A DNA stretch of 64,000 nucleotides. Source: a virus. Positions 1,868 through 37,594 of the stretch are shown here, piece after piece (position 1 is the first letter of the stretch; each line of letters opens with the position of its first letter). The translations under genes and the position numbers were made by a program. The stretch is from positions 1 through 64,000 of IMG/VR virus record IMGVR_UViG_3300037222_000100. One strand, written 5' to 3'. The notes beneath the pieces are model-generated. The model saw only the letters and a list, made by a program, of their open reading frames with translations, did no database searches and had not been told where the DNA came from.

Positions 1868-4800
1868 CTACGTATTAGGCTGCGCTTGAGCGTATTCTGT
1901 AGCCCTCTGTAGCAACGCAGGGCGCTCATTCAAGGCGGGATTCTCTACTACGTCATTTGTCAACTGTCGCAAAACGGTGCCTATCTGAGGTCCTTTGAGC
2001 CCCAGAACAAGCAAATCGCTTCCGTTCACAGAGATCATCGATTGGGTGGTCGGAGCACCGGCTTGGCGAGCTTGCTCAACCAGTTCGCGCTGCTGATCAA
2101 CCGTTGCTTGATTGCGCTTGTTCTCTGCACCCTTTCCGGCAATGTCCGCTTCACGCAAGGTCATCAAATCATCTGCCGAATCTCCCACTCGATTCAAAAA
2201 ACGTCTTGCGCCCTTAGGAGAACTGAAATCGGGATACATGTGATGGCTGATGAGATTGTGGACGTTACGAATCTTCGAGACGGGGTAGTTGTACGTTTCA
2301 CGGAGACGTTGCTCGGCGATGTCTGCGCCCACTTTCGCGTGATCGGCACCGACCGGCTGGCCGTCGATCATGCCGGGGTAGTAATGCGTAACCTCTGTCG
2401 CAGGATCGACCCATGATGAAGCTGGCTTGCCAACATCGTGGAGGAGAGCCGCGAGACGGACCTCGGGATCATCTGTCAGATGCGATACGTTGTCGAGCAC
2501 GTTCAGGCTGTGCTCACCAAGGGAGTAGTTGTGATGCGGGTTGCGCTGATCGTAGTCGAAGTTGTTCGCTAGCTCCGGGAACATGTGATGCAGCACGCCA
2601 GTTTCCTGCGCGAGGCGTAGTGCTCCGGCAGGATTGGGGCTTGCGAGGAGCTTGTCTAGTTGCTGCTTGAGCGCATCTGGCGACTCGTTGTCGAGTCGGT
2701 AGGCGTGTTCCTCCATCTCCTTGCGGGTGCGCTCATCCGGCACCAACCCGTGCCGTGAAGCAGCAACGAGAGCGCGTACCAAACGCGTCGGGTCCTCGTC
2801 AAAGGAATCGGGGTGAGTAGTACGGAGGGTATGGGACTCAATATCCTTCGCTCCCCCGTAAGGATCGACAAGTCGTCCCGTCTCAAGGTCAACCGCCATC
2901 GAGTTCGCTGTGAAGTCTCTACGCGCAAGGTCTTTCTCCACTGGTAGGTTATGGTCTACGGTGATTTTGCCCTGGCCTCGTCGTCCACCCTCTTCGTAGG
3001 TGTCCGTGCGCGGCAGAGCGATCTCCACTTCCTGTCCTTTGGTGCGGTACTTGTATGTGCCGAAGCGCTTGCCCTCCCAGTTGACGCTGCCCGGAAGCTT
3101 GTCGAGCACATTCTCAACCTGCTCAGCCGGGAGGCCCGACACCATGAAGTCAATGTCACGCGGCTCCTTCTGAAGTAGAGCATCGCGTATGGCACCGCCC
3201 ACGACGTAGACATGACCCCCGGCCTTACGTAGCGCCTGGAAGGCGTTCCAGGCTGCTCCATCGGCCGCAGTGAGTGTCTTGACGTAGGAGCCAACGTCCG
3301 CCGTGGCGAGCTTCTGTGCCTTACCCTGCTGATTTTCAAGTTCGAGGCTCGTGATCTCCATGTGAGGATGGCTCCAGTACCAAAGCTGCATCATGTGATA
3401 GGTCGAGTACGGCATCGTGGTCGTCGTGTTGATGACGATCTTGCCACCGGGCTCGTAGTAGCCCTCCACGATACCACCCGGCGTGAACTGTCCCATGATG
3501 TCCGAGGTCTTCATACCAGGATGACCTACCGTGATGTAGTCTTTGTCGATGTCGTAGACGAACGGAAGAGGCGCTTCGAGCAGGTCCTTTGGTTCCTTGC
3601 CGCCCGCTGCGGTCACGTAGCGATGCCCGCTCGTATTGACCATGCCCATGCGGCGCACGAGCCGTTCTCCCTCTGGCGAGTCTGCATGCGTGTACGCATT
3701 CGGGTAGTGAAGCAGCATCCGTTGCAAAAGGGCCGTGCCTACGCCTCGGTTATGCACTGCCGAATGCACCATGACAACCTCCGCCTCGTCCTCGCCGGGG
3801 CGCACAACGCCATAGCCGACGATCTGACCATCGAGATAGCCGCCGTAGAAGACATAGCCCTCGTCGCGATTGTAACCCCAGAGCTTGGAGTAGAGGTCGA
3901 AGTCTTCGACAGTCGAAGCTTCGCGGAAGGAAGCTAGCGGTTGCGCCGTAGGTTCGCTGTTGCGAAGACGAAGAGGAAGAACGTCGTCTTTGTCGTTGAG
4001 CGTTGGGAAGTGACCGTCATCCAGGTAAGCGGGAGCCGCATCTAGGGGATCATGTTGCTTGTTGTGCAACACGTACTGGCGAAAGTTCGGCAGCACGACA
4101 CCGCATGTCGAACACGTTAGCTCACCCTGCGGCTCGCCATCGAATGCCTTCTGGGGCTCGGCTTCCGGGTTGCCCTTGTCGTATTCCTCCGTCCACTCCT
4201 TGTTCTTCATGCGGTCGTTCATGTCCGTGCCGCCGGGATACTCGGCTAGACGAAGACCGAAGTCGTCAGCCCATTCCTCTAGCCCCGCTCGTGCGGCCGG
4301 GTTGAGCTTGCCCTGAATCTTCGCCATCTTGCCTTCGACCACGATACGTCCCTTGCTGCCACGGAACGGTGCCTCGCTTAGCTTGAGTCCGCCCTTGGTG
4401 GTGTACCAGTAGGACTTCTTGGCTCCAAAGTCATCGTGGATGGGTTGACCGCTACCGTCCACGAGCCCGCCCCAAGTCCAACCCACGCGCTTGCCGTAGT
4501 CCTGAAGCTCTTTGACGAGCCCGCGCAGTGCGATGTTGCCTTCTACGCTCCAGAGAGCATCACGCCCTCGCACAGTGACGTAGCCCACCGCCATAGGACC
4601 CTCATGGTTCGCCGGAGTCCCAGAGTGATCGCGTAGTTCATCGTGGCTATGCATCGGCGAGACATGAAGCTGACCATTGCCGTAGAAGAACTTGTACTCC
4701 TTCTCGTTTGGTTTCTCCATCGAAAGCTCCAGATCGCTGCGCGTATCGTGGAAGTAGCGATTTTCGAAGTCTTGATTGGCCTGCGGCTCTTCGCCGGGGT

Positions 4801-5317
4801 ATGCGTCTCCCCACTCGCCGCTATCCGCCTGCTTAGGGATGCCTCGCTCCAGTGCCGCATTGGCTCGACGTGCGAACGTTTCTGCACGCGGATGATCCGG
4901 ATATGTCTTGATGCGGAAGTCACGATAGAGAGGGCTGTCTGCGCGTGTGTAGATAATCGGCCCTGAGCGATGGCGCTTCTGTTCGGGCTCGAAGTCATAT
5001 GGCTCGTCGTCCTCATCCAACAGACTCGTCTTTGCGGTCGTCGGCTCGTAAGAGTTCTCGTCACCAGTGAGATCGATAACGTACTGCTTGTCCGGAGACA
5101 CCCAAAAGTAGTGACCGTGCTTAGTACCCACAAAGCCACCGAGCTTGTCGGCTAGCCACTGCGACGTGACGAAGCACTGACCGGCACTAGCCTGAGGGTG
5201 TCCCTGGAAGTCAGGATGACGCGTCTCGTCTCCCCAGGCGTGTTCGGCCGCACTACGCAGTTCGTGCAGTTTGTCCTGGGTGATGGTATCGGGATCAAAG
5301 CCCATACTCATTACCAC
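1868..5317 (-). CDS. 1149-aa polyprotein: papain/transglutaminase(YunG)-like N-domain, C2H2 finger, GNAT acetyltransferase, class II CCA-adding enzyme + HD domain
   Basis: GQCFVTS..HYF..IDLT; CSTC..H..H; HNRGVGTALL; VGGAIRDALL..DIDF, RRDFTAN, DEDPTRLVRA; LLHDVGK. Confidence 0.85.
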   Translation of the reverse strand: MVMSMGFDPDTITQDKLHELRSAAEHAWGDETRHPDFQGHPQASAGQCFVTSQWLADKLGGFVGTKHGHYFWVSPDKQYVIDLTGDENSYEPTTAKTSLLDEDDEPYDFEPEQKRHRSGPIIYTRADSPLYRDFRIKTYPDHPRAETFARRANAALERGIPKQADSGEWGDAYPGEEPQANQDFENRYFHDTRSDLELSMEKPNEKEYKFFYGNGQLHVSPMHSHDELRDHSGTPANHEGPMAVGYVTVRGRDALWSVEGNIALRGLVKELQDYGKRVGWTWGGLVDGSGQPIHDDFGAKKSYWYTTKGGLKLSEAPFRGSKGRIVVEGKMAKIQGKLNPAARAGLEEWADDFGLRLAEYPGGTDMNDRMKNKEWTEEYDKGNPEAEPQKAFDGEPQGELTCSTCGVVLPNFRQYVLHNKQHDPLDAAPAYLDDGHFPTLNDKDDVLPLRLRNSEPTAQPLASFREASTVEDFDLYSKLWGYNRDEGYVFYGGYLDGQIVGYGVVRPGEDEAEVVMVHSAVHNRGVGTALLQRMLLHYPNAYTHADSPEGERLVRRMGMVNTSGHRYVTAAGGKEPKDLLEAPLPFVYDIDKDYITVGHPGMKTSDIMGQFTPGGIVEGYYEPGGKIVINTTTTMPYSTYHMMQLWYWSHPHMEITSLELENQQGKAQKLATADVGSYVKTLTAADGAAWNAFQALRKAGGHVYVVGGAIRDALLQKEPRDIDFMVSGLPAEQVENVLDKLPGSVNWEGKRFGTYKYRTKGQEVEIALPRTDTYEEGGRRGQGKITVDHNLPVEKDLARRDFTANSMAVDLETGRLVDPYGGAKDIESHTLRTTHPDSFDEDPTRLVRALVAASRHGLVPDERTRKEMEEHAYRLDNESPDALKQQLDKLLASPNPAGALRLAQETGVLHHMFPELANNFDYDQRNPHHNYSLGEHSLNVLDNVSHLTDDPEVRLAALLHDVGKPASSWVDPATEVTHYYPGMIDGQPVGADHAKVGADIAEQRLRETYNYPVSKIRNVHNLISHHMYPDFSSPKGARRFLNRVGDSADDLMTLREADIAGKGAENKRNQATVDQQRELVEQARQAGAPTTQSMISVNGSDLLVLGLKGPQIGTVLRQLTNDVVENPALNERPALLQRATEYAQAQPNT

Positions 5318-26299: not shown

Positions 26300-26360
26300 T
26301 TAGATGGGTCCCGTTCCATGATGTCACCCATTATGGGAGAGGTCGCGCCCGGATTGTTAG

Positions 26361-26429: not shown

Positions 26430-26565
26430 TGGCTTTCCCCTACCGCTTGCACGGGATAGCGGGTACTCGTGTAACACGTCATCTACGTGCTCCCTGATCC
26501 GGGGTGCGGCACATAGCAAGGATGACGTGAGTTAGAGCAGCGTCCTCTTGCGAAGGTCTGTTCTC

Positions 26566-26745
26566 CTAACCGTGTTTCTTCTGACCTGGCTCACCAGGTC
26601 CAAGAGGCTTACCAACGCGGGCGCGGTAGCGCTCGCACTTGGTTTTGTTGCGGCCCCACTTACGGTCGCCACCGCTTTTGCGGCGGTTGTTCCTTTTCAT
26701 CAACTTGGCGTGAGTTACGTCAAGCGGGTTTGCCCGATTGGGCAT
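26566..26745 (-). CDS. Highly basic 59-aa protein
   Basis: AAGGAG RBS; MPNRANPLDVTHAKLMKRNNRRKSGGDRKWGRNKTKCERYRARVGK... Confidence 0.6.
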   Translation of the reverse strand: MPNRANPLDVTHAKLMKRNNRRKSGGDRKWGRNKTKCERYRARVGKPLGPGEPGQKKHG

Positions 26746-26809
26746 GTGTATCTCCTTTGGCTAGGGTTACCTAGTCATGGGGATACCTCCTTGCGTTGGT
26801 TGATGTTGA

Positions 26810-26880
26810 AACGGATAGTCGGAATCGAACCGACATCAAGAGCGTGGAAGGCTCTTGTCATACCATTAGACCATACCCGC
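26810..26880 (-). tRNA. tRNA-Gly(TCC)
   Basis: Cloverleaf, loop CUUCCAC. Confidence 0.9.
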
Positions 26881-26962
26881 AGGTGCGCCATATCGTCCTA
26901 TCATCCGTAGGTACGGCACACACCTACGTAGGCTCGTTTTCACCGCATGCTGTTACTCACGA

Positions 26963-27034
26963 AGCCCACTCTCGGAATCGAACCGAGTTCGCCGGTTTAC
27001 AAGACCGGAGCATCACCATTTATGCTTAGCAGGC
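26963..27034 (-). tRNA. tRNA-Thr(TGT)
   Basis: Cloverleaf, loop CUUGUAA. Confidence 0.9.
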
Positions 27035-27038
27035 GAAT

Positions 27039-27423
27039 TGTATCGATAAGCCGGATTCTGTCATTGGACGATCATCCATCTCAGCCTTAGCTGCCGCCTC
27101 ACAACTGCGGTTCCCCAACCCGATATGACCGTAGGCTTTCCAACCCCTTCAATAGGTGGCCCGTTTTGCGGTATAGCCCTTGCGGACAACAAGCCTGCTC
27201 ATCGCAGACACGGCTTTCGCCATCAGGGGTACCACCGCCCTTAGGTTTCTCTGTATGGGTTTCATCCTCGACGCTTTGCGTGCGGTACAAACGCCTCTCG
27301 GCTCCCGCCTCTTTTCGCGATGTCTGTTGATCGCGGCTTCCTCAGCCGCAGACCGAGTTTCCTCGGCCAGGATGTCCGGACTTTCCTCTGGAGGGATCGG
27401 ACCTCCAGCGACCGTCTGATACA
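27039..27423 (-). ncRNA. rnpB: RNase P RNA (phage-encoded, atypical)
   Basis: CR-I GAGGAAAGUCCGG, CR-IV AGAUGGAUGA, CR-V ACAGAAUCCGGCUUA, terminal helix UGUAUC/GAUACA, P3 hairpin CUGGAGG/CCUCCAG. Confidence 0.9.
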
Positions 27424-27424
27424 G

Positions 27425-27494
27425 AGCGGTAGATGGGACTCGAACCCACAACCTCCACCATGGCTATAGTGGGTACCTCGCCTGAGGCTACCGC
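27425..27494 (-). ncRNA. tRNA-like RNA (Gly-like acceptor) with abnormal anticodon loop
   Basis: GCGGUAG/CUACCGC acceptor, canonical T-arm, minimal D-arm, stem CCACUAU/AUGGUGG closing AGCC. Confidence 0.65.
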
Positions 27495-27599
27495 TGTTCC
27501 TACTGAATGTTCACGCACTGCCCAGGATGACCTCCGCCTGGAACCGCTCGTTGTTCTGCTTCGCACGCACGACGCTTAGCCCCTATGTCGGGTTGCCCT

Positions 27600-28259
27600 T
27601 CAGGCGTATTCGGCGGTTCGGCGGTTTCCGGCGTCACCTGTGATTCCCTCGGATTTACGGCTAAAGCGACCTTCCTTCCAATCGTTCAAAAGGGTGTACT
27701 CGTAACTCGTGATGTCTCCGTGGGCGATCAGGTCGAAGAGGACGGGCCTCTCCTCCTTCAAGCTTGCAACAAGGTGCTCTGCAATGTCCCTCTCGGCCTC
27801 CGTGAGGTAAGGCGCAATGGATTTGCCATTGCCGCCATCTCGTTTGTGCAGGTCCCGATGCCAACCGACGCAGGCGGGGATCGTGCAGAACGACCGAGGC
27901 GCGTAGCTGATGTAGTCTGGAAGCTCCAGCATCAGCCAGCGAGGAACGAAGTGGTGTCGTGTAATGCGGCCGTCGCACTCGCCCTCCTCGCCGTGGTAGC
28001 GACAGATAGGAGAATGCTGCGTGCCAAGTACGCGTTCCTTCTTGGCCTCGATCACATCATGCGGGATCAGCCCACTGCTGTGATTGAGGCGGTACAGGAC
28101 CGCTTTCGTGGAGAGGCGTTCATCGAGTAGATCATCGATGTCCGCGTCCTCGACCTCCGCGACGAGTTCTAGCTGCTCGACCGTAGCTTCGCCGTCATAC
28201 GAGTCGAACCAGTAGACCTGTCCCGTGACGGGATGGGTCCAATCTCGTGCTCGCGACAT
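27600..28259 (-). CDS. HNH-like endonuclease
   Basis: CRYH..CDGRITRHHFVP..TIPACVGWHRDLH; ATG just after TATACT. Confidence 0.6.
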   Translation of the reverse strand: MSRARDWTHPVTGQVYWFDSYDGEATVEQLELVAEVEDADIDDLLDERLSTKAVLYRLNHSSGLIPHDVIEAKKERVLGTQHSPICRYHGEEGECDGRITRHHFVPRWLMLELPDYISYAPRSFCTIPACVGWHRDLHKRDGGNGKSIAPYLTEAERDIAEHLVASLKEERPVLFDLIAHGDITSYEYTLLNDWKEGRFSRKSEGITGDAGNRRTAEYA

Positions 28260-28285
28260 GCCTACAGTATACAGCACACGTCAAG

Positions 28286-28357
28286 TAGCCCGACAGGGAG
28301 TCGAACCCTGGTTACGGCGCTGAGAACGCCGCGTTCTAACCGCTGAACTACCGGGCC
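28286..28357 (-). tRNA. tRNA-Glu(CTC)
   Basis: Cloverleaf, loop UUCUCAG. Confidence 0.9.
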
Positions 28358-28493
28358 ATACAGGGGAGCGCTCTACTGCTGACGCTACACGCCACAAGCA
28401 TCGCTGATCGGGCGATCCTTTCTTTCGTCGTAGTACTCCGACTTCAGACTTCGGTGACATGACAGGAATTGCACCTGCGACCTCTCCCCGTAA
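28358..28493 (-). ncRNA. Circularly permuted tRNA-like RNA
   Basis: Order: GGGAG, T-arm, 3' acceptor CAUGUCAC, ~58-nt insert, 5' acceptor GUGGCGUG, D-arm, CUCCC. Confidence 0.7.
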
Positions 28494-28502
28494 GGAGTGA
28501 AG

Positions 28503-28575
28503 TAGTCCCTCTCGGATTCGAACCGAGAACCAACCGCTCATAAGACGGGTGCTCTAACCATTGAGCTAAAGGACC
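28503..28575 (-). tRNA. tRNA-Ile(TAT)
   Basis: Cloverleaf, loop CUUAUGA. Confidence 0.85.
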
Positions 28576-28603
28576 ATATGGGCCTCTCGCGAGGCCCAAG
28601 GGG

Positions 28604-28972
28604 TCAAAGATGCGATACCGCCTTTGGAGCAATTTCAGCCAAGGCCGGTGTTTGTGTTGTTTCGTTGTGCGTTGTCGTCCCACAGTCAATTTTGCTGACC
28701 CCGTAGTAGGGACGTTCGCCGTACCATGGTTCGCGATATGGTCGCGGATATGGTACTGGGTATGGGAGAGGATACGGTCGTGGAACCGAGATGGGCTGAT
28801 TCGCCAGTTCCTTCTTTAGGAGCCGAATGCAGTCCACCGTGGTCGGATTCCGACCGTGCCCTTTCCAGTCGAGCCCGCAGAGCGAGCAGACCGTCGATAC
28901 TGCGACGGGTTCAGGTTTGGTTGCTTTCTTTTGCGTTGCCATGATTGGTGACGAGTCCCTTTGACACTTCAC
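28604..28972 (-). CDS. Hypothetical protein with PYP repeats (start uncertain)
   Basis: CSLC; PRPYPLPYPVPYPRPY. Confidence 0.5.
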   Translation of the reverse strand: MKCQRDSSPIMATQKKATKPEPVAVSTVCSLCGLDWKGHGRNPTTVDCIRLLKKELANQPISVPRPYPLPYPVPYPRPYREPWYGERPYYGVSKIDCGTTTHNETTQTPALAEIAPKAVSHL

Positions 28973-29168
28973 CGCGATTTTCTCGTTTCTCGGTCATGCC
29001 GCCCCAAACACGTCCACGGGCAGAGTCGAGCACATGGCCCGCCTGCGTCGTACTCATGTTGAGCGCGTGACTGATCTGCGGGACGGTACTGCCCTCAAAG
29101 TACATCTTGAAGGCATCGTATTCGCTCGCGTTGAGACAATACACCGATTCGATGTCTCGCCTCGCCAT
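28911..29168 (-). CDS. Sigma-70 region 4-like HTH protein
   Basis: LNASEYDAFKMYFEGSTVPQISHALNMS; AGGAGGG RBS. Confidence 0.6.
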   Translation of the reverse strand: MARRDIESVYCLNASEYDAFKMYFEGSTVPQISHALNMSTTQAGHVLDSARGRVWGGMTEKRENRGEVSKGLVTNHGNAKESNQT

Positions 29169-29205
29169 TTCACCCTCCTTTAGGATGTTGGTTTTGGTAA
29201 TGCAG

Positions 29206-29278
29206 GGTGGCCGGAGGGAATCGAACCCTCATCGCGTGGATCACAACCACGAGTTCTAACCGTTGAACTACGGTCACC
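29206..29278 (-). tRNA. tRNA-His(GTG)
   Basis: Cloverleaf with G-1:C73. Confidence 0.9.
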
Positions 29279-29282
29279 ATGA

Positions 29283-29360
29283 TGCGCCGAGGGGTTTAGG
29301 TCCTTCCCCATCCGGGATTCGATGTACCCGTGCTCTTGAACCCGGTTGAGCTACCGACGC
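29283..29360 (-). ncRNA. Degenerate tRNA-like RNA
   Basis: Acceptor and D-arm present; enlarged anticodon loop; non-canonical T-loop. Confidence 0.5.
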
Positions 29361-29362
29361 GA

Positions 29363-29437
29363 TGCCCCCTCTGGAAGTCGAATCCAGACTATGGACGGGT
29401 TTAGACCGTATCCCTCTGCCAATTGGGGTAAGGGGGC
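29363..29437 (-). tRNA. tRNA-Leu(TAA), short variable arm, C33
   Basis: Leu-type D-arm; loop UCUAAAC. Confidence 0.75.
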
Positions 29438-29546
29438 GTAAACCCTGCCGACTTGCCATTACTTGTCGCGCCCTGACGGGCGCAGTACAGTGGTTGGTTC
29501 ACTACTCGGCTGAACGAGCATCAGCGTCAAGTCGAATCAGGGCTAG

Positions 29547-29617
29547 CTGCGGGTCAGGGATTCGAACCCCGATTGACTGGTTCAAGGCCAGCGGTCCTGC
29601 CGTTGGACGAACCCGCA
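29547..29617 (-). tRNA. tRNA-Gln(TTG), C33
   Basis: Loop CCUUGAA. Confidence 0.85.
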
Positions 29618-29776
29618 AAGGATCGTTGCATCTGCGGATTCTTGACACGTAGAAGCTCCTCAGTCAGCATCCGCACAATACTGTATTTGTACCGATGGAC
29701 AGCGGTTTCACGTTCTTGCACGATCCGCTCGTGCCTCTTCTTGGTGATGAACCACATGGGTCCAGTATAGCGAAAG

Positions 29777-29848
29777 CTGCGGGACAAGGATTCGAACCTC
29801 GATCCTCTGGCTCAGAACCAGATCACTTGCCGTTAGTACGATCCCGCA
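29777..29848 (-). tRNA. tRNA-Gln(CTG)
   Basis: Loop UUCUGAG. Confidence 0.9.
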
Positions 29849-29882
29849 ATGCGGCCCGGAAAGAATCTCCGGGCCAATTCTG

Positions 29883-29969
29883 TTACGACGTGAGACGCTC
29901 GACCGTCCAAGAGACTAGACCGGCGCTGAGCCAAGCGAGAACGCTACCGCCGCCTATGGTTACTGCCAT
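29883..29969 (-). CDS. 28-aa hydrophobic peptide
   Basis: GAGGGGGTG RBS; MAVTIGGGSVLAWLSAGLVSWTVERLTS; downstream hairpin. Confidence 0.5.
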   Translation of the reverse strand: MAVTIGGGSVLAWLSAGLVSWTVERLTS

Positions 29970-29989
29970 GTTTCACCCCCTCAAAGGGA

Positions 29990-30062
29990 TAGCAGTCCCC
30001 GGATTCGAACACGGGCTCTCAAGGTTATGGGCCTTGAATGGTCACCAGACCACCTGACTGCA
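29990..30062 (-). tRNA. tRNA-Met(CAT), initiator-like 1:72 mismatch, C33
   Basis: U1/U72 mismatch; loop CCCAUAA. Confidence 0.75.
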
Positions 30063-30064
30063 AG

Positions 30065-30138
30065 TACTCTCCCTCGGATTCGAACCGAGACTGGACCGGG
30101 CTTGAACCGGCTTCCTCTACCAATTGGGATAGGAGAGC
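30065..30138 (-). tRNA. tRNA-Leu(CAA), short variable arm
   Basis: Loop UUCAAGC. Confidence 0.85.
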
Positions 30139-30147
30139 ATATACGAA

Positions 30148-30187
30148 GTGATTATGCTAACCTCACACATGCGCGAGGCGTAAATTT
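30148..30187 (-). promoter_or_regulatory. Internal promoter/operator copy 1
   Basis: AAATTT..GCCTCGCGcATG..GAGG..cATAATCAC, similar to 35992-36033. Confidence 0.5.
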
Positions 30188-30260
30188 CCGGAGGAAGCAA
30201 CCGCTTTCGGTAGAGGCCCTAGGGGGTCCCCTCCAAATTTTTTGGCTACGATCAGCCGAG

Positions 30261-30335
30261 TCCTGTCGGGAGGATTTGAACCTCCGACTCCTCGCGTATC
30301 AGACGAGTGCTCTAACCAGACTGAGCTACGACAGG
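30261..30335 (-). tRNA. tRNA-Ile(GAT)
   Basis: Loop CUGAUAC. Confidence 0.9.
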
Positions 30336-30407
30336 TAGTTTGGGACTCCGCCGCGTCACTTCGGCAGTTTCTAGCACCGGGGCTTAGTCCGGGTCCCGAG
30401 AGTGCAG

Positions 30408-30475
30408 AGCCGACGCAGGAATCGAACCTGCCGGACCCCGGTGCATGCACCTAGTCTGGACCCCAGTCGTCGCAC
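30408..30475 (-). ncRNA. tRNA-like RNA lacking an anticodon loop
   Basis: Canonical T-arm GCAGGUUCGAUUCCUGC; palindromic GGUGCAUGCACC in place of the anticodon arm. Confidence 0.5.
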
Positions 30476-30482
30476 TACACAG

Positions 30483-30556
30483 CGGACCCAGGCGGAATCG
30501 AACCGCCGACACCTGCCTTTTCAGGGCAGTGCTCTACCTGACTGAGCTACAGGTCC
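30483..30556 (-). tRNA. tRNA-Phe(GAA)
   Basis: Loop CUGAAAA. Confidence 0.9.
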
Positions 30557-30823
30557 CTACTTTTGCCCGGCCAAGATGTCTTCGACCTGATCGAGCACCT
30601 TGGGCATGGACTCCTCTACTTCGCAGTCGATGCACTTCTTGCTGCCTCTGATTGCACGCTTCACGCAATGAGGTTCCTCACAAAGGATTCTCGTGGGCCG
30701 CATGAACTCTGGAATGTCGAAGTCTTCTTGCATCTTCATCTTTCGTCGTCTCAGGCCCGCCAGCAGAACGATGATCGCGCCTCCAGCGAGGAGGTTCTTC
30801 TGCTCTTGGTACATGCCACCCAT
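30557..30823 (-). CDS. Small Cys-rich protein (start uncertain)
   Basis: CEEPHC..CIDC; TGCTATCAT upstream. Confidence 0.45.
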   Translation of the reverse strand: MGGMYQEQKNLLAGGAIIVLLAGLRRRKMKMQEDFDIPEFMRPTRILCEEPHCVKRAIRGSKKCIDCEVEESMPKVLDQVEDILAGQK

Positions 30824-30849
30824 TAGGCGACGGATGATAGCACTTTCAG

Positions 30850-30934
30850 CGGAGGGACAAGGAATCGAACCCTCAGGACGCAAGCCCTGGCCTAGTTTTC
30901 AAGACTAGTTGCCGACCATTCAGCGCGGCCCTCC
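30850..30934 (-). tRNA. tRNA-Ser(TGA)
   Basis: Long variable arm; loop CUUGAAA. Confidence 0.9.
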
Positions 30935-30986
30935 AGGAGCGGACCGCCCCGAGAGCCATTTCAGGCCGGGAGACGCTACCGCTCTA

Positions 30987-31057
30987 AGGCGTCGTCCGGA
31001 TTCGAACCGGAGTGAGTCGGGTTGCAGCCAACTGCGTAGCCTCTCCGCCACGACGCC
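30987..31057 (-). tRNA. tRNA-Cys(GCA)
   Basis: Loop CUGCAAC; U73. Confidence 0.9.
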
Positions 31058-31063
31058 AATGTA

Positions 31064-31429
31064 CTACAGCACTACAAGACCTTCTTCGACCTCGGTGTGA
31101 CAGTTGCCGCAGAGAAGAGCACACTTCGCGGCCTCTGCCTGAACCGTCTTCCAGGCGCGAGTAAATCCCTTGGCCGCAATGCCAAAGGACTTCGTGGTCG
31201 GATCGAGATGATGAAATTGAAGAGCACCTTCGCACCGATCATACCCACACACTTCACATCGACCACCATGTTCTGCGACTAATTTCCGCTTGATCTCGCG
31301 TCGCTTCTCAGCGATGCGGTCGCTCTCGCACGGACGACAACGCCAACTGTTAGCGGCGTCAGGTCGCCTCCAATGAGACACGTCGCCGTGCCTCTTGCAG
31401 GTCTTGATCTGTTGCTCCACCTGTGGCAT
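31064..31429 (-). CDS. HNH endonuclease
   Basis: CEVCGY..LQFHHLDP..KCALLCGNCH. Confidence 0.85.
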   Translation of the reverse strand: MPQVEQQIKTCKRHGDVSHWRRPDAANSWRCRPCESDRIAEKRREIKRKLVAEHGGRCEVCGYDRCEGALQFHHLDPTTKSFGIAAKGFTRAWKTVQAEAAKCALLCGNCHTEVEEGLVVL

Positions 31430-31457
31430 TATACCATGGTGTACGCCAGACTTGTAG

Positions 31458-31532
31458 CTCACGGCGCTGGAATCGAACCAGCCTCATACTCGGGTAACAG
31501 CCGAGCGCATTCGCCTTGATTGCTAGCCGTGA
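31458..31532 (-). tRNA. tRNA-Asn(GTT)
   Basis: Loop CUGUUAC. Confidence 0.85.
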
Positions 31533-31545
31533 ATGCAGAGGAAGA

Positions 31546-31764
31546 TCACTCTTCCTCGTCCAGCTTGATGCAATTTGCGCAGTTACACAGCGCGGGCCGA
31601 CCTACTCCTCGCTCGCCTTCATGCGTCAGGCTATGGAGAGGGGCTGACCTACGAGTTCCTCGCTTGGGATGGATGCTCTTGATGCGCTCGTTGAGCACGG
31701 GGCATCGATAGAGATGCCCCTGTCCCGATGGGTACGACTTGTGACAGTACGAGCACCAATCCAT
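31546..31764 (-). CDS. Small Cys/His-rich protein
   Basis: CSYC..H..C, CNCANC; leaderless after TATCCT. Confidence 0.5.
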   Translation of the reverse strand: MDWCSYCHKSYPSGQGHLYRCPVLNERIKSIHPKRGTRRSAPLHSLTHEGERGVGRPALCNCANCIKLDEEE

Positions 31765-31788
31765 GTGGATAGGATATCAGAAATGAAG

Positions 31789-31873
31789 CGGAAGGTGTGG
31801 GATTCGAACCCACGGTGGCTTTCACCACGCCGAGTTAGCAACCCGGTACATTCGGCCTCTCTGCCAACCTTCC
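31789..31873 (-). tRNA. tRNA-Ser(GCT)
   Basis: Long variable arm; loop UUGCUAA. Confidence 0.9.
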
Positions 31874-32000
31874 AAATGGTGGACGTGCCCGGACCAGAGG
31901 CCCGAAAACTTTTGCCCTTTCGTGCTGGTATGTTCGTCACATTCAGCCGGGTTACCATACCAGTGGTACCCAACCTGATTCAGGGCATTCTGTACGTCCA

Positions 32001-32073
32001 AGCCCTTGGCGGGATTCGAACCCGCGCAAACCCGCTTAGGAACCGGGCACTCTGTCCGCTGAGTTACAAGGGC
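32001..32073 (-). tRNA. tRNA-Arg(CCT)
   Basis: Loop UUCCUAA. Confidence 0.85.
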
Positions 32074-32084
32074 GTACTACGAAG

Positions 32085-32490
32085 TGGACCCTGTGGGAAT
32101 CGAACCCACGTCTCCGGCATTCGTATTGCGTTACTATCTAGCAGCTTTGGGACAGGCTTGGCCCGTCTCCACCACTCGGTTTACGTCCGAGAACGGCACC
32201 GGGCCGAAGCCCGACTGATGCACCACCTGGTTTGAGTCCAGGAACTTGTCGCGGGGTGCTACCAACCGTTTTCTGTTCCGAGGCGTACGGTGACCCGGCT
32301 CTGACTAAACCAGAGCGAGAGTTGCCTCGCGAGCCGAGAGCGACGGGGAGTGCCCCGGTACGGGGTCTTCCATGAAGCTCGCGGGGATCGCGAGGGTGTC
32401 TGTGTTGCCTGTTATGGCTTGTGTCAGGTAGGTGTGACGACCGCTGCGTAACAACAACCGAGTCTTACCAGATCGATACCTGTAAGGCCC
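32085..32490 (-). ncRNA. ssrA: tmRNA
   Basis: GGGCCUU/AGGGUCC-A acceptor with G3:U, T-arm GUGGGUUCGAUUCCCAC, AUAACA before resume codon, tag ORF 32409-32305. Confidence 0.9.
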
Positions 32491-32629
32491 ATGCGGGGGC
32501 GAGGCTAGATAGCACCCCGCCCGCCGATGCTACTCGACTAACTGGGTACTGCCTGGATCACCCCCTGTAAGTTGAAGGACAAGGTAACCTCAGATGGCCC
32601 GTCTAGAAAGGGCGAAGTCAGCTACCTAG

Positions 32630-32701
32630 TAGACGATACTGGATTCGAACCAGTGACTTCCACGTTGTCACCGTGGCGCTCTCCCACTGAGCTAATCGTC
32701 T
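32630..32701 (-). tRNA. tRNA-Val(GAC)
   Basis: Loop GUGACAA. Confidence 0.9.
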
Positions 32702-32771
32702 AGGCTGCCCGTTGCCACTGGTAGTCTAGTCCAGATGCCGGGCTCTCCACAGGCATTCAACCTGGGAGCAG

Positions 32772-32842
32772 TACTCGGTGAAGGAATCGAACCTTCGTCG
32801 TCACGGTGTAAACGTGATGCTAAACCACTCAGCTAACCGAGC
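32772..32842 (-). tRNA. tRNA-Val(TAC)
   Basis: Loop UUUACAC. Confidence 0.9.
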
Positions 32843-32898
32843 ATGTGCCCGCCCACAGAGGGACAGGCATCGCACGCCGGGCGAACCCTAAACGTGAG

Positions 32899-32972
32899 CG
32901 GGACCTACCGGACTCGAACCGGCGACCTCTGCCGTGACAGGGCAGCGCTCTAACCAACTGAGCTAAGGACCC
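32899..32972 (-). tRNA. tRNA-Asp(GTC)
   Basis: Loop CUGUCAC. Confidence 0.9.
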
Positions 32973-33050
32973 AAGGGTGCCCCTGCGGGAGTCATCGTAT
33001 TGGGGATGACGGGCAGGGGACTTGTATGCAATTGGCCGATCTAGTCGGCA

Positions 33051-33117
33051 GCGGGGCGAGAAGGAATCGAACCCTCGCCTGCGGGTTTGGAATCCGCAGG
33101 TCCATCCAGGCGTCCCG
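33051..33117 (-). tRNA. tRNA-Trp(CCA), degenerate D-arm
   Basis: Loop UUCCAAA; T-arm intact; imperfect acceptor. Confidence 0.55.
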
Positions 33118-33124
33118 ATTACTT

Positions 33125-33526
33125 TTACTGCGCAATCCCGCAAGCGGTCTTGATTTCGTCAATGATGTTCAGTGGAACGTGAGAAATCTGTTCAAATTCT
33201 GTAGCCGTGTAGAGAGCGGTAAGATGTTCCGTGGAACAGATGGCCTGCTGTTCAGTAAGAATGGGGGTCTTTTCCTTTTCGATCTTCCTCCGAAGTTCAA
33301 GGCTTCGTGTCGAAGACCAGGAACCTTCCTTACCAAGAAATCCTTCGCCTTGCTTAGGATGGGGTACGGCTACAGCTTCCTTCTGAAGTTCCTTTGAGGC
33401 GTGCGTCAAGCCACTCGTAAGTGCATTGACTACACGTTCCCGCTCAACTTCGTATCCAGCGAAGAAGCCAATACCACCTGCGACTAGCACTGCTACGACG
33501 ATGAGGAGCTTCGCTTTGGTTGTCAT
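33125..33526 (-). CDS. Membrane-anchored protein
   Basis: N-terminal TM; TTGACA-17-TAGACT promoter, leaderless. Confidence 0.7.
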   Translation of the reverse strand: MTTKAKLLIVVAVLVAGGIGFFAGYEVERERVVNALTSGLTHASKELQKEAVAVPHPKQGEGFLGKEGSWSSTRSLELRRKIEKEKTPILTEQQAICSTEHLTALYTATEFEQISHVPLNIIDEIKTACGIAQ

Positions 33527-33562
33527 GCCCGTAGTCTACCGAACCACCGCTTGCTTGTCAAG

Positions 33563-33631
33563 CGGGAGATCGAGGAATCGAACCCCGTCCTAGAGTTTTG
33601 GAGGCTCCTTGGCTGCCATAGCCTATCTCCC
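33563..33631 (-). tRNA. tRNA-Trp(CCA), short D-arm
   Basis: Loop CUCCAAA. Confidence 0.8.
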
Positions 33632-33952
33632 TCGTTGATACGTGCGCTCCCTGTGACAATTGGCGCAGACGACTTCGCACTTGGCGATCTCTGCCTTGAT
33701 TGTATCCCATGCCGCTGCAATCTTGGCAAAGCGGCTAACCTCACATCTCTTCTCTCCGCGTACATGATCGAACTCCATCACGTAGTAGGGGTAGGCCACC
33801 TTGCAATCAGCACATGGGCGATCCTTGGCCTCACGGATGAGACGCTTCTGAGCCTCTATTCTGACCCTTTTACGGGCCAGAAGAACTTCACGATTGTCTT
33901 TCTGGTACTGACGTTGATACTCGATCTTGGCTGTGCCTTCAAGCGCCATCAT
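33623..33952 (-). CDS. HNH endonuclease
   Basis: CADC..MEFDHVRGEK..KCEVVCANCHRERT. Confidence 0.85.
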   Translation of the reverse strand: MMALEGTAKIEYQRQYQKDNREVLLARKRVRIEAQKRLIREAKDRPCADCKVAYPYYVMEFDHVRGEKRCEVSRFAKIAAAWDTIKAEIAKCEVVCANCHRERTYQRGR

Positions 33953-34071
33953 CAGTTATGTAGGAGAAGGTCATGGTTTTATTTGGTCACCATGACCTTC
34001 ACCCCAAGAGGCCGGAGTCTGACGAAGTACTCGCGGGGTGATCAACTCCCCGACCGCTCCTCGTCCGGCCA

Positions 34072-34143
34072 AGCCAACACTCGGAGTCGAACCGAGTTCT
34101 CTCGCTTACGAAACGAGTGCATCACCAAGAATGCTTTGCTGGC
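34072..34143 (-). tRNA. tRNA-Thr(CGT)
   Basis: Loop UUCGUAA. Confidence 0.9.
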
Positions 34144-34265
34144 ATAGAACACAAGAGAGTGGCCCGGCAAACCCTGGTGACGGCGAAGGGGAGAACACCA
34201 CATTCACCCTTGAACTTCGACCGCAATGGTGTCCACGACATCTACTGGCGGACCTCCTGTGTTCA

Positions 34266-34337
34266 AGCCCACGTCGGGAATCGAACCCGAACCTCATCCT
34301 TACCATGGACGCATGCTACCTTTAGCACCACGCGGGC
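34266..34337 (-). tRNA. tRNA-Thr(GGT)
   Basis: Loop AUGGUAA. Confidence 0.85.
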
Positions 34338-34343
34338 ATCAAA

Positions 34344-34391
34344 GACCCGGCCGCATACCCCAGGTACCTGGGACAGAGGCGGGACCGGGCC
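34344..34391. repeat. ~49-nt hairpin repeat, copy 1
   Basis: GACCCGGCCGCATAC..CAGAGGCGGGACCGGGCC shared with 36038-36086. Confidence 0.8.
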
Positions 34392-34567
34392 GTACAACAG
34401 TCCTGTCCATGAGCCCTACGGCTGACGACAGGAGCGCTCCGTCCGCGATCCCTCTACCGGGGGCCGACCGAGCAATAGGCAAGGAGTAACCCGCCCTGAG
34501 GACGCTAGCGAGGTTAGATCGCGTCCACCACAGGGCTCACGCCTCGTGTTTCGTGTGTCACTCCTAG

Positions 34568-34641
34568 TCAGGATAGGAGGATTTGAACCTCCGCCCTCTT
34601 CGTTCCGAACGAAGCGCGCTACCAAGCTGCGCCATACCCTG
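34568..34641 (-). tRNA. tRNA-Pro(CGG)
   Basis: Loop UUCGGAA. Confidence 0.9.
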
Positions 34642-34787
34642 TAGATGCCGCATCGGGTAGACAGGTCCTTGCAGAATCCGCCTACGGCCTGGTGGCCGTG
34701 CGCAACTCATTCGGGACCCGTTACTTTCGATGTCCTCCGGGTCATGAGTCCCGTTGGATACGTCCCTCGCGATGGGATTTCCGACAG

Positions 34788-34882
34788 TGCGCAAGACGGG
34801 ATTCGAACCCGCATTCGCTGGTGTGAAAAACCAGTGCTGTGGAGACTGTTTGACGGCCTCTCTACCGTTCAGCTACTCACGC
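34788..34882 (-). tRNA. tRNA-Glu(TTC) with extra hairpin in D-loop
   Basis: Loop UUUUCAC; ~22-nt insert inside D-loop. Confidence 0.75.
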
Positions 34883-34945
34883 ATGTGCTGAGCCAGGCTT
34901 GGCCTCAGCGTGGATGGACATTTGAGTCTGCCATCGATCAGACTA

Positions 34946-35017
34946 TCGGGAATGCAGGAGTTGAACCTGCGCTAGAGCGTTCCAAACGCCCGGTGCGGCC
35001 ACCAACACTTATCCCCG
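34946..35017 (-). tRNA. tRNA-Pro(TGG)
   Basis: Loop UUUGGAA. Confidence 0.85.
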
Positions 35018-35060
35018 TAGTCGGCACGGGTTACCATGCCGAGGTCATACCGGTTGCTAC

Positions 35061-35363
35061 TTATTCGACAGGCGGCTCGACCGGCGCTGGCGGAGTTACT
35101 GCATCGTCAAGTGCAGTCGTGTTCGCCTCAACCTGAGATGTGCTTGCCGTGACCGTCGTCGTAGCCGCATCGACTGCGGCCTGAGTTGGGTCGTTCGTGA
35201 TCTTGTCAACGGCTGCGGTGACGGCCGTCGTGTTAGCCGCTACAGCGGCTTCGTTGGCGGCAACTGCCGCCGTGAGTGCATCGGTGTTTGCCACTAGCTT
35301 CCTCTGTTCTCGTAGTAGTTGCTCCAAAATCTCATGCTGAGATTTATGGCGTCTGTATTCCAA
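35061..35363 (-). CDS. Ala/Thr-rich coiled-coil protein (start uncertain)
   Basis: AAGGAGGG before TTG; heptad A-V-A-A-N repeats. Confidence 0.5.
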   Translation of the reverse strand: MEYRRHKSQHEILEQLLREQRKLVANTDALTAAVAANEAAVAANTTAVTAAVDKITNDPTQAAVDAATTTVTASTSQVEANTTALDDAVTPPAPVEPPVE

Positions 35364-35389
35364 TAGACCCTCCTTGATTGGATGGGCAG

Positions 35390-35462
35390 TGGACCTGGAG
35401 GGACTTGAACCCTCTACCTCCTGCTTGCAAGGCAGGCGCTCTCCCAGATGAGCTACAGGCCC
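35390..35462 (-). tRNA. tRNA-Ala(TGC)
   Basis: G3:U70; loop CUUGCAA. Confidence 0.9.
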
Positions 35463-35512
35463 ATACGGCACCCCTGTTCTGAGCCTTTATCTCTCAGCCA
35501 GGTGATGCCAAA

Positions 35513-35584
35513 TGCCCCCGTGGAGAATCGAACTCCAGCATCCGGGGTAAAAGCCCGGCGGTCTACCACTAACCATACGGAGGC
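35513..35584 (-). tRNA. tRNA-Lys(TTT)
   Basis: Loop CUUUUAC. Confidence 0.9.
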
Positions 35585-35693
35585 GAAGGCCCAGACCAGA
35601 GCGTAGACGCTTCAATGCTTTCGGCTCCACGTCTACGGTTAGCCTGGGGTGCTGCATCATACTCGTGTGTCGTTTGCCGGAGTCATGTCCGGA

Positions 35694-35768
35694 TGCGGCC
35701 CGTGGGACTCGAACCCACAAGCGACACGTTCTAAGCGTGCCAGGTATACCAATTCCCGTCAGAGCCGC
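35694..35768 (-). tRNA. tRNA-Leu(TAG), short variable arm
   Basis: Loop CUUAGAA. Confidence 0.85.
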
Positions 35769-35906
35769 GTGTCCTCCTGCTCTCGATGCTAGGAGGGGTA
35801 CTCTTCTGTATTCATTCTTCGACATCGAGAGCGTGCCGTCCCATCAACTCCCTGATTGGGTGGGCTAGGGAGGCCATCGGTCTTACACCCTAAAGACGAT
35901 TCTTGA

Positions 35907-35989
35907 TGCGCAGGGAGGGAGTCGAACCCTCACGAGCTTTCGCCCACCACGTCCTCAACGTGGCGTGTCTACCATTCCACCACCAGCGC
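35907..35989 (-). tRNA. tRNA-Leu(GAG)
   Basis: Long variable arm; loop UUGAGGA. Confidence 0.9.
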
Positions 35990-35991
35990 GG

Positions 35992-36033
35992 GTGATTATC
36001 ATAATGCCTCGCATACGCGAGGGCAAAATTTTT
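35992..36033 (-). promoter_or_regulatory. Internal promoter/operator copy 2
   Basis: TTGCCC-17-TATGAT with CCTCGC/GCGAGG inverted repeat in spacer. Confidence 0.55.
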
Positions 36034-36037
36034 CAAG

Positions 36038-36086
36038 GACCCGGCCGCATACTCTGTCCATGGACGAGCAGAGGCGGGACCGGGCC
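36038..36086. repeat. ~49-nt hairpin repeat, copy 2
   Basis: See 34344-34391. Confidence 0.8.
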
Positions 36087-36093
36087 ACTACAG

Positions 36094-36171
36094 TGCCAGC
36101 GGAAGGAATCGAACCTTCTTGCCGAGGCCACGGGTTTACAATCCGCTATCACTCCATGTGATCTCGCTGGC
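36094..36171 (-). tRNA. tRNA-Tyr(GTA)
   Basis: Loop UUGUAAA; variable arm. Confidence 0.8.
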
Positions 36172-36367
36172 ATGCTAGTTGGGTCCTTGATCTCCGGGCG
36201 CGATCCGACGAGCAACTTGATCCCACGCCACTACGCGTTTCGGGATCATGCGGTATGGTTACCGCTGCACTCAAGGGGTTTGCCCCAACTTGGAAGGCGT
36301 TGAATATGTACGGTGCCTTCTGTGCCGTTCGACGGGGACTATAGCAGATGCTCTGCTTCCCGTCTAG

Positions 36368-36440
36368 AGCCCCGTTCGGGAGTCGAACCCGATGATCGCG
36401 CTTTAGAAGAGCGCTGCCTTTTCCGTTTGGCTTACGAGGC
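36368..36440 (-). tRNA. tRNA-Arg(TCT)
   Basis: Loop CUUCUAA. Confidence 0.9.
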
Positions 36441-36608: not shown

Positions 36609-36638
36609 ATTCTAGCACGGGGTCCCCCTTAGTTTCAA
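36609..36638 (-). promoter_or_regulatory. Sigma-A-type promoter heading the RNA operon
   Basis: TTGAAA-18-TAGAAT with extended TG. Confidence 0.65.
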
Positions 36639-36690: not shown

Positions 36691-36879
36691 TCAGCCCTCG
36701 GCCCAATATCTCACGTAGCGCTCGCGAAGCTCCCCCTCGGAACGCACGTCCTGATACCCGGTGGCCTCATCGATCAGAGCGTCCATCCCGACCTTGGCTT
36801 GGGCCATTAGCTCGCGACGATTTGATGGCTCGCACCACTCGCAGTCGCAGCATTCTTCATGGGGCAGTGGCTCAGGCAC
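36691..36879 (-). CDS. Small protein with P63C-like ALIDEATGYQ motif
   Basis: CCDCEWC; GMDALIDEATGYQDVR. Confidence 0.45.
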   Translation of the reverse strand: MPEPLPHEECCDCEWCEPSNRRELMAQAKVGMDALIDEATGYQDVRSEGELRERYVRYWAEG

Positions 36880-37594
36880 CGTGCTCCTTACCCTTGTCGT
36901 CGCCCTTGATCGTCGCCTTGAAGAGGGAGTTGCTGTGCTTGTGGTAGAGGACGACACCCTCCGGGTCCATGAAGCCCGGTGCTGCTCGCGACCCATCATC
37001 CTCCAAGGATGCGAGCGCTCCGATCACCGCATCCACCGCGAAGGTATCAGCTTCCGCCAGAACGGGCACAACATGACAACACTTTGGTCGAGGATTGACG
37101 ATCACCGTCTCGCCAAATCCGTTCGCCTCCTCGTACTCGCCCCACCGGGAGACGTTGAAGAGGCTAAAGCGCTTCTCGTCCAAGCCATATTTGCGCTGGA
37201 TGCCAGAGCCCCACCACTCACCGAAGTGAACGCCGACTCCGAGGCCAGCCGCTAGCTTGTGTGCGTTCTCGCGGACCCACTTGGCAAAGCCGAAGTTGTC
37301 CTGCTCCGGGCTGATGACTTGCTTGCGCGACTGCGCGTAGACATACACGGGGTCCCATCCATCGAAATGTCCTTCGAAGGGGGCCTTGTTCACGACGATG
37401 CCAGGACCGACGATCTCGTCCGCACCGTAGCCGTACAGAGATGTCTCGCTGACAACGACCGCCGAGTTGGTGCCGTCGATCTTCTCCGTGATCACGATGG
37501 GACGGAAGAGCCTGCTGATCTTCGGGAACTCAGTGAAGGATGCCTCCGGAACGAAAGACTCCTCCGGGACGCGCACATGTGCCAGTCCGGTCAT
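36872..37594 (-). CDS. RNA ligase (Rnl2-like adenylyltransferase domain)
   Basis: TEKIDGTN motif I, QSRK, FGEWWG, LFN, PEGVV, FKATIK. Confidence 0.8.
   Translation of the reverse strand: MTGLAHVRVPEESFVPEASFTEFPKISRLFRPIVITEKIDGTNSAVVVSETSLYGYGADEIVGPGIVVNKAPFEGHFDGWDPVYVYAQSRKQVISPEQDNFGFAKWVRENAHKLAAGLGVGVHFGEWWGSGIQRKYGLDEKRFSLFNVSRWGEYEEANGFGETVIVNPRPKCCHVVPVLAEADTFAVDAVIGALASLEDDGSRAAPGFMDPEGVVLYHKHSNSLFKATIKGDDKGKEHGA

Follow-up and report, generated by a model that had tools for sequence, protein, structure and literature searches.

A remodelled RNase P RNA in a phage tRNA array and its place in a probably host-assisted tRNA maturation module

Introduction

Genes for RNase P RNA are considered cellular. 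Virus record IMGVR_UViG_3300037222_000100 of IMG/VR appears to carry one amid a large array of tRNA genes, which raises the question of what this RNA does there and how much of tRNA maturation the virus can perform with its own genes. We analyzed the first 64 kb of this record (positions 1 to 64,000, hereafter the window); the full record, labelled G000, spans 167,869 bp and is rated complete. A sequence-only reading of the window had proposed an apparently self-contained system in which 34 tRNAs and a transfer-messenger RNA (tmRNA) are matured and repaired largely independently of host processing by a phage RNase P RNA (hereafter P RNA), a CCA-adding/HD enzyme, a polynucleotide kinase (Pnk)-like protein and an RNA ligase 2 (Rnl2)-like protein. 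Our results suggest instead that the region is probably a semi-autonomous, host-assisted tRNA maturation module organized around a remodelled phage P RNA. We found no phage-encoded RNase P RNA in the literature searched, which took in few subscription papers, and the huge-phage survey of Al-Shayeb et al. 2020 (PMC7162821) mentions RNase P 0 times.

The record belongs to an uncultured phage family with genomes of roughly 145-170 kb, and no cultured phage of INPHARED matched its tRNA array or its P RNA. Relatives were gathered with three baits: the ligase, the RNA motif and a conserved 219-amino-acid (aa) protein of the array. Among them, G001 is a syntenic relative of 170 kb whose proteins are mostly 45-80% identical to those of G000, and G002 and G003 are fragments. 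The alignment of P RNAs comprised 12 sequences: that of the window, those of 10 relatives covering the site and that of the related locus L078.

Identification of a remodelled RNase P RNA

The P RNA of the window (Table 1) was matched by the Rfam model RF00010 with 46.2 bits (E 2.8e-11), which does not reach the gathering score of 100. A scan requiring complementarity of the two strands of helix P4 returned a single site in the 168-kb genome and 0 in 30 shuffled genomes. The claim that the window encodes an RNase P RNA was upheld by this match, by the unique P4-pairing site and by the covariation of the core described below. The P RNAs of the relatives scored 57-63 bits in Rfam or went undetected. 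Both the P RNA and the tmRNA of the window are overlooked with the Rfam gathering threshold and default ARAGORN, and the E-value mode of Rfam is required to find them.

The core of the P RNA is intact: helices P1-P5 and P15 are all present (P3 by inspection), and P4 contains its bulged U. The GGU of loop L15 and the A of junction J5/15, which are contacts to the substrate 3' end and to N-1, the nucleotide preceding the mature tRNA (PMC10731613), were found in 12/12 P RNAs. The window P RNA also contains a rebuilt specificity region of 104 nt, an insertion of ~130 nt in the P16/17 region and two hairpins preceding conserved region (CR) IV. Across the P RNA set, the specificity region varies from 71 to 233 nt, and its standard CR II/III motifs were not recovered (ACAGAR in 0/12, UGAAA in 1/12), where degenerate equivalents are possible.

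These features place the RNA near bacterial type A P RNAs (RF00010; E. coli M1 RNA, T. maritima), with which it shares P1-P5, P15, CR I/IV/V, the bulged U, the J5/15 A and the L15 GGU. Unlike type A, it lacks evident P6, P7 and standard CR II/III, presents an extra hairpin before CR IV and resides in a genome without detected rnpA. Like types B and C (RF00011; Thermomicrobium), it carries a hairpin right behind P5 and a pair of helices separating P15 from CR IV, and the P RNA of one relative scores best as type B, far under the gathering threshold. In contrast to these types, the phage P RNA retains an extended P16/17-like arm inside L15. An earlier virus-encoded RNA that was proposed to be RNase P RNA-like was inactive in vitro, whereas the full set of conserved core elements and their covariation in the phage RNA lead us to infer activity. 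Judged by its sequence, the most fitting reading is that of a functional RNase P RNA that has been remodelled and would be catalytic.

Covariation of the core and rewriting of helix P4

The P RNA lies between the positions of tRNA-Gly(GCC) and tRNA-Thr(UGU) in all 10 relatives covering the site. Over the 12 sequences, 95/96 cells of P4 are paired, 6/8 of its pairs present two-sided changes and the bulged U is found in 12/12; the positions that never vary are the opening A-U pair, the bulged U and the C-G pair after it. Pairing in P1, P2, P5 and P15 reaches 90-100% per helix, again with two-sided changes. When P1, P2, P4, P5 and P15 are taken together, 96% of cells are paired, a fraction favored by the assignment of the helices on the same 12 sequences, and 18/29 pairs covary. 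No shuffle scored as high, and slid controls were 27-43% paired. The two-sided changes are hard to account for without selection, and the covariation shows that the core of the P RNA is under structural selection.

In three distant relatives (L439, L440 and L442), the normally near-invariant sequence of P4 has been rewritten on both strands. Rfam at E 0.001 gave no match in L439 and L440, the two most heavily rewritten of the copies scanned, and a motif search missed all three. We had considered the P RNA to be absent from these relatives and dropped this view when reading the sequences made the compensated copies visible. Unlike in type A P RNAs, P4 has been rewritten in the phage relatives, whereas 51/51 P4 matches in a metagenome set were canonical (a biased sample, since these were picked by the canonical 3' pattern). 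The family also shows that standard annotation with Rfam overlooks part of the phage P RNAs. Variants that swap most pairs of P4 yet retain the bulged U constitute a natural mutagenesis of an active-site helix.

The same data bear on the possibility that the P RNA derives from a host rnpB gene as a fragment in decay that is passively carried. The Rfam score does not reach half of the gathering score, the fold z-score of the single window sequence is -1.4 and the insertions are large, all of which would be expected under decay. Yet compensatory changes run through P1, P2, P4, P5 and P15, and the P RNA is present in every covered relative. Its architecture also differs from that of rnpB in Solirubrobacterales, the candidate host order discussed below, in which P6 and CR II/III are present and P18 is missing. 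We consider decay to be extremely improbable.

tRNA trailers and probable dependence on the host

The array contains 34 tRNA genes with 32 anticodons that cover 20 amino acids, and none of the 34 encodes CCA, as had been claimed. ARAGORN identified 32 of them, and relaxed scoring added tRNA-Trp(CCA) at 33051-33116 and a tRNA-Glu(UUC) with a long D arm at 34787-34882. In the window, the sequence following the discriminator base is C74-U75 in 22 genes and U74 in 12. One of these two trailers is found in 401/405 tRNA genes of the family (137/137 and 264/268), against a background of 0.26, and CCA is never encoded, which shows that the trailers are under selection. U is also the commonest base at N-1 of the tRNA genes in five family members.

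B. subtilis RNase Z is reportedly activated when a U occupies position 74 or follows just downstream, a finding attributed to Pellegrini in 2012. The U74 complex of B. subtilis RNase Z has been confirmed (PMC8943300); precursors without CCA are processed by RNase Z, whereas CC or CCA inhibits the enzyme (PMC1874595, PMC7479834). The simplest reading of the U74/U75 trailers is that the 3' ends would be trimmed by host RNase Z, and the rule would then represent a sequence signature of dependence on this host enzyme. The pathway resembles that of CCA-less tRNAs in B. subtilis (RNase P, RNase Z and CCase; PMC1874595), with which it shares CCA-less genes and U-containing trailers and in which RNase P is able to act ahead of RNase Z. 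It differs from it in that nearly all the phage genes obey the rule and that two of the three activities are apparently virus-encoded.

Several other activities were not detected in the virus. RnpA (PF00825) had no match at E<=1 in G000-G003, and an RNase Z-type lactamase and SmpB had none in the two complete genomes G000 and G001; cellular controls were matched in these searches. No synthetase was found in batch Pfam scans of ~150 further proteins (one list showed 25/30 families, and a few open reading frames lay outside the scans). Moreover, covering 20 amino acids does not amount to reading every codon, as CGU, CGC, CGA and CGG have no phage tRNA. These four make up 89% of the codons for Arg and, with superwobble allowed, still 4.7% of the total. 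Genes for Arg(GCG or ACG), Arg(UCG), Lys(CUU) and Gly(GCC) lie just upstream of the P RNA in relatives and are missing from G000.

These results do not support the claim of a self-contained, largely host-independent system, and they contradict it as regards decoding. In its full form, the complete tRNA pool would be matured and repaired without host processing enzymes, and it is true that all five named parts are found in G000, G001 and G002 and that no role has been assigned to one conserved HNH-like protein encoded there. However, RnpA, RNase Z, SmpB and synthetases were not found by profile searches, the CGN codons are undecoded and the RNase Z-type trailers are common to the phage and to the candidate host group. 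We regard full self-sufficiency as very improbable. A related idea is that of a host-orthogonal maturation, in which the P RNA would represent a new structural type of RNase P, with a rebuilt specificity domain and a freely rewritten P4 that function in the absence of host RnpA, either alone or with a phage partner such as the 219-aa protein, and in which the CCA/HD enzyme would be delivered within a multidomain virion protein; this appears quite unlikely.

The candidate host group emerged from several similarities. Among the genome matches listed, the 18-nt CR I/P5 motif was found mostly in Solirubrobacterales. One genome of this order presents trailers of the same U74/U75 type in 29/31 cases and no CCA, together with a tRNA-Glu(UUC) containing a hairpin in the D loop and a short-arm tRNA-Leu(UAA), as in the phage. 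RNase Z is encoded by five Solirubrobacterales genomes. Against this assignment, the tmRNA tags and the rnpB architecture differ from those of the phage, and the search for prophages described below found none. We consider the evidence for Solirubrobacterales as the host order to be evenly balanced.

A proposed host-assisted maturation pathway

The host-assisted module that we favor would operate in the following steps. The array would be transcribed as multi-tRNA precursors; the number of promoter-like sites in the region is no higher than in shuffles, which lends no support to a single operon. Punctuation by tRNAs would release the P RNA: a cut of the 3' type would follow the upstream Gly or Gly-like element, and one of the 5' type would fall at tRNA-Thr. 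In the window, the P RNA abuts the trailer of a tRNA-like element, a putative processing signal that takes the place of tRNA-Gly(GCC), and the first base of tRNA-Thr, which suggests excision by the cuts that mature tRNAs; in several relatives, the Gly position upstream is occupied by an intact tRNA-Gly or by another tRNA-like element. The P RNA would then assemble with host RnpA and remove 5' leaders, and its invariant L15 GGU could pair with N73-C74-U75 through a G-U wobble. Host RNase Z would cut before U74 or U75, and the phage CCA/HD enzyme would add CCA or CA and possibly heal damaged 3' ends. Finally, host synthetases and SmpB would charge and use the phage tRNAs and tmRNA. The phage would thereby add capacity for the 5' and CCA steps during a pulse of >30 CCA-less precursors.

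Several points weigh against this pathway. The paired fraction of the P RNA helices is favored by their assignment, as stated above. Profile searches could miss RnpA or RNase Z genes that have diverged strongly. Searches with the terminase or the array protein turned up no prophage in genomes of the candidate class and order (two samples of 401 genomes). Lastly, a P RNA without standard CR II/III motifs may have a low or altered activity on pre-tRNAs: deletions in the specificity domain are able to shift the substrate range, and catalytic domains alone can be active (PMC11143913).

This last point leads to an alternative role, in which the P RNA is catalytic or structural and mainly serves something other than bulk pre-tRNA maturation. 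It might process other substrates, such as tRNA-like punctuation elements and tmRNA or mRNA precursors, or it might titrate host RnpA away from M1 RNA. The rebuilt specificity domain, with its range from 71 to 233 nt, would fit such a role, as would the several tRNA-like elements of the array and the sequence of P4, which changes unusually fast, as though evading recognition. In contrast, the invariant L15 GGU and J5/15 A, the fixed site amid tRNA genes and the U-rich N-1 suit tRNA substrates, and nothing in a pure decoy would require the bulged U and CR V. We consider this alternative rather unlikely and retain tRNA maturation as the probable role of the P RNA.

RNase P-like RNAs in other viral arrays

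An exact-motif scan identified P-like RNAs in at least 22 viral tRNA arrays, of which 19 are outside this family, with some duplicates. On the basis of these motif matches, the window P RNA is one member of a wider class of viral P-like RNAs. Most of the other arrays encode CCA in many or all of their genes, which indicates that the U74/U75 rule is typical of this family and not of such arrays generally. The present analysis contributes the rewriting of P4 inside one family, the finding of a P RNA in all relatives covering the site, the rule for the trailers and the conserved fusion of the CCA enzyme described below.

We also observed a separate clade of miniature P RNAs of ~250 nt beside tRNA genes (L228, L239, L246, L253, L258, L263 and L264). 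Those of their arrays that are large enough to score contain tRNAs that encode CCA, and N-1 is A, not U. Locus L078 presents a 271-nt P RNA (42-312, plus strand) with the P15 region of this family, and the trailer rule is found in 14/14 of its tRNAs. In the P RNA of L229 (ending near 1012-1039, minus strand), an apparent HNH-like reading frame interrupts the specificity region.

Table 1. Positions of the RNA and protein features in the window.
Feature	Position	Strand	Evidence or remarks
Class II CCA-adding enzyme + HD, residues 703-1149	1868..3211	-	PF01743, PF12627, PF01966
N-terminal 690 aa of CCA fusion	3248..5317	-	YunG-like Cys/His domain, alpha/beta domains, Cys/His zinc-finger-like motif, optional GNAT
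Pnk-type P-loop kinase, 159 aa	7582..8061	-	GxxGxGKS, DxxR, lid arginines; AAA_33, PHROG polynucleotide kinase
tRNA array, 34 genes	26360..36440	-	ARAGORN default + relaxed scoring
tRNA-Thr(UGU)	26963..27034	-	Abuts P RNA 3' end
RNase P RNA, ~388 nt	27035..27422	-	Rfam RF00010, P4-pairing scan
P RNA landmarks	CR I 27374-27388; CR V 27045-27062; CR IV 27069-27082; L15 GGU near 27118-27120	-	
tRNA-like element	27424..27494	-	Abuts P RNA 5' end; acceptor + T arms intact, D + anticodon arms aberrant
HNH-like protein, 219 aa	27600..28259	-	Inside array, upstream of P RNA; invariant Cys + His
tmRNA	32085..32490	-	G3:U70, CU trailer, T arm, 34-residue tag (32305-32409) ending LALV
Sigma-70-like promoter candidate	36609..36638	-	10/12, extended -10; head of array
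Rnl2-like ATP-dependent RNA ligase, 240 aa	36872..37594	-	PF09414; motifs I, III, IIIa, IV, V intact

The CCA-adding enzyme and its fusion

The predicted CCA/HD enzyme was confirmed by its three Pfam domains; it is however confined to the last 447 residues of a conserved multidomain protein of 1149 aa. The motifs GGxxRD, DxD, RRD, EDxxR and HD and the RxD loop motif are intact and conserved, and the combination of DxD, RRD, EDxxR and a flexible loop with RxD/E is that of class II enzymes. Among solved structures, the CCA domain is matched best by the CCA-adding enzyme of T. maritima, but those of CC- and A-adding enzymes match it as well; the flexible loop is present.

The N-terminal part of the fusion has 133 clusters of homologs. 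The CCA domain is also found in 49/55 of the long homologs, and a GNAT domain in 12/51. The fold of these 690 aa was predicted with a predicted local distance difference test (pLDDT) value of 84; Foldseek recognized the GNAT domain alone, and an Atlas search returned nothing above 0.76. Lengths range over 900-2800 aa with variable modules, as in phage polyvalent proteins, and one may speculate that the fusion is delivered with the virion. In G002, the gene of the fusion is split in two. The huge phages surveyed by Al-Shayeb et al. 2020 (PMC7162821) likewise encode a large tRNA set, a tmRNA and a tRNA nucleotidyltransferase; here, by contrast, synthetases and SmpB were undetected and the CCA enzyme is fused to the N-terminal multidomain region.

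The kinase, the ligase and possible tRNA repair

T4 Pnk and Rnl1 form a tRNA repair pathway, and a similar repair had been proposed for this phage. Both candidate proteins are present. The kinase was upheld by its AAA_33 and PHROG polynucleotide kinase matches and by its best solved match, the kinase module of C. thermocellum Pnkp; it shows the features of the 5'-kinase module of T4-type Pnk. It has no fused 3'-phosphatase, as it is 159 aa long and its match is confined to residues 3-145 of a profile with 295 positions. The ligase, directly upstream of the array as had been stated, contains nucleotidyltransferase motifs I-V of the Rnl2 family; its nearest solved protein is T4 Rnl2 (E 2e-5), and Rnl1 ranks 43rd by fold. 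It lacks the C-terminal domain of Rnl2: it ends shortly past motif V with 240 aa, and T4 Rnl2 has 335 aa.

Like T4 Pnk/Rnl1 and bacterial Pnkp, the phage thus combines a P-loop 5'-kinase with DxxR and an ATP-dependent RNA ligase, in a tRNA-rich phage as for T4. It differs from T4 in that the kinase has no phosphatase, the ligase is of the Rnl2 type without the C-terminal domain and the two genes are 29 kb apart. Healing of 3' ends might come from the HD domain, by analogy with E. coli CCA-HD. A distance of 18-21 kb, which includes the terminase and portal genes, separates the kinase and CCA genes from the array.

The co-occurrence of the components across relatives was borne out for the array, the tmRNA, the P RNA and the CCA enzyme, but not for the ligase and the kinase, which some relatives lack at the expected syntenic sites. 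No ligase was found ahead of the array in L437 or in one further relative record (for L436-L440, absence is local and refers to the surroundings of the array), and L457 has no kinase homolog upstream of its CCA gene. A T4-like repair would be plausible, but the Rnl2-type ligase is common in phages that have no tRNA genes close to it.

It is possible that the kinase and the ligase are independent accessory genes, engaged in the repair of other RNA or nucleic-acid nicks and unconnected to the tRNA module, a view compatible with the explanation that we favor for the P RNA and the CCA enzyme. Only four of 80 viral loci with the ligase had at least 14 tRNAs nearby, three of them from this family, and ligase homologs are found in actinophages of 41-56 kb. 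The absences in L437, the other record and L457 and the Rnl2-like rather than Rnl1-like ligase point in the same direction. Conversely, the ligase is immediately ahead of the array in seven relatives, and the kinase retains the DxxR of RNA 5'-kinases and is located 2.3 kb from the HD-bearing CCA enzyme in G000, G001 and G002. We give this view an even chance. That the two enzymes add anticodon-loop repair in one subclade is a more tentative proposal; tRNA repair is possible in that subclade and is not a fixed part of the system.

tmRNA and other elements of the array

The tmRNA that had been claimed was upheld by an Rfam match in E-value mode (E 1.8e-7, under the gathering score) and by the homology of its 34-codon tag to those of tmRNAs called by ARAGORN in relatives. 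It has the tRNA-Ala-like ends (G3:U70 and the T arm) and the internal tag frame of a tmRNA. The tag is unusually long, with 28-34 aa across the family and a conserved LAIPASF core. A ClpP-like gene is located at 38113-38835, two genes upstream of the ligase.

The 219-aa HNH-like protein presents 45-77% identity over at least 155 homologs and was found within a tRNA array at every locus read, a co-occurrence that is partly by construction, since the protein served as a search anchor. Such conservation exceeds what is usual for a homing endonuclease, and the protein is a candidate factor in RNA processing.

Additional tRNA-like or cloverleaf elements with aberrant anticodon arms lie amid the tRNA genes on the minus strand (29285-29360, 30404-30466 and 36182-36276). 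Several tRNAs of the same strand are unusual. The tRNA-Glu(UUC) has a hairpin inserted in its D loop; long tRNA-like calls were obtained at the matching position of G002 and G003, and a similar tRNA is found in a Solirubrobacteraceae genome. A tRNA-Ile (28502-28575) has a UAU anticodon, which would read AUA without lysidine, and a Met tRNA (29987-30063) has a U1-U72 mismatch and C33. In relatives, RNAs similar to GOLLD (L439, 1-259) and manA (L436, 5828-6050) were matched inside tRNA arrays, and genes for Pth2, an RF-1-like protein and NAD salvage are also found in the arrays of several relatives.

Genome setting

The record also encodes portal, terminase, baseplate and tail-collar proteins, DnaE, ribonucleotide reductase and RecA. 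The two ends of G000 (1-2362 and 164962-167869) overlap at 74-86% identity and include a second partial end of the CCA gene. We dismissed a true terminal repeat of 2.9 kb, given this identity between the end copies, and the overlap is probably a join of two strains. Finally, two G000 proteins of 780 aa (149071-151413, minus strand) and 934 aa (162887-165691, minus strand) presented weak matches to 2H-phosphoesterase or Acb1-like domains (E 2e-4 and 7e-4), and it is possible that these are anti-CBASS or cyclic-phosphate-opening domains.

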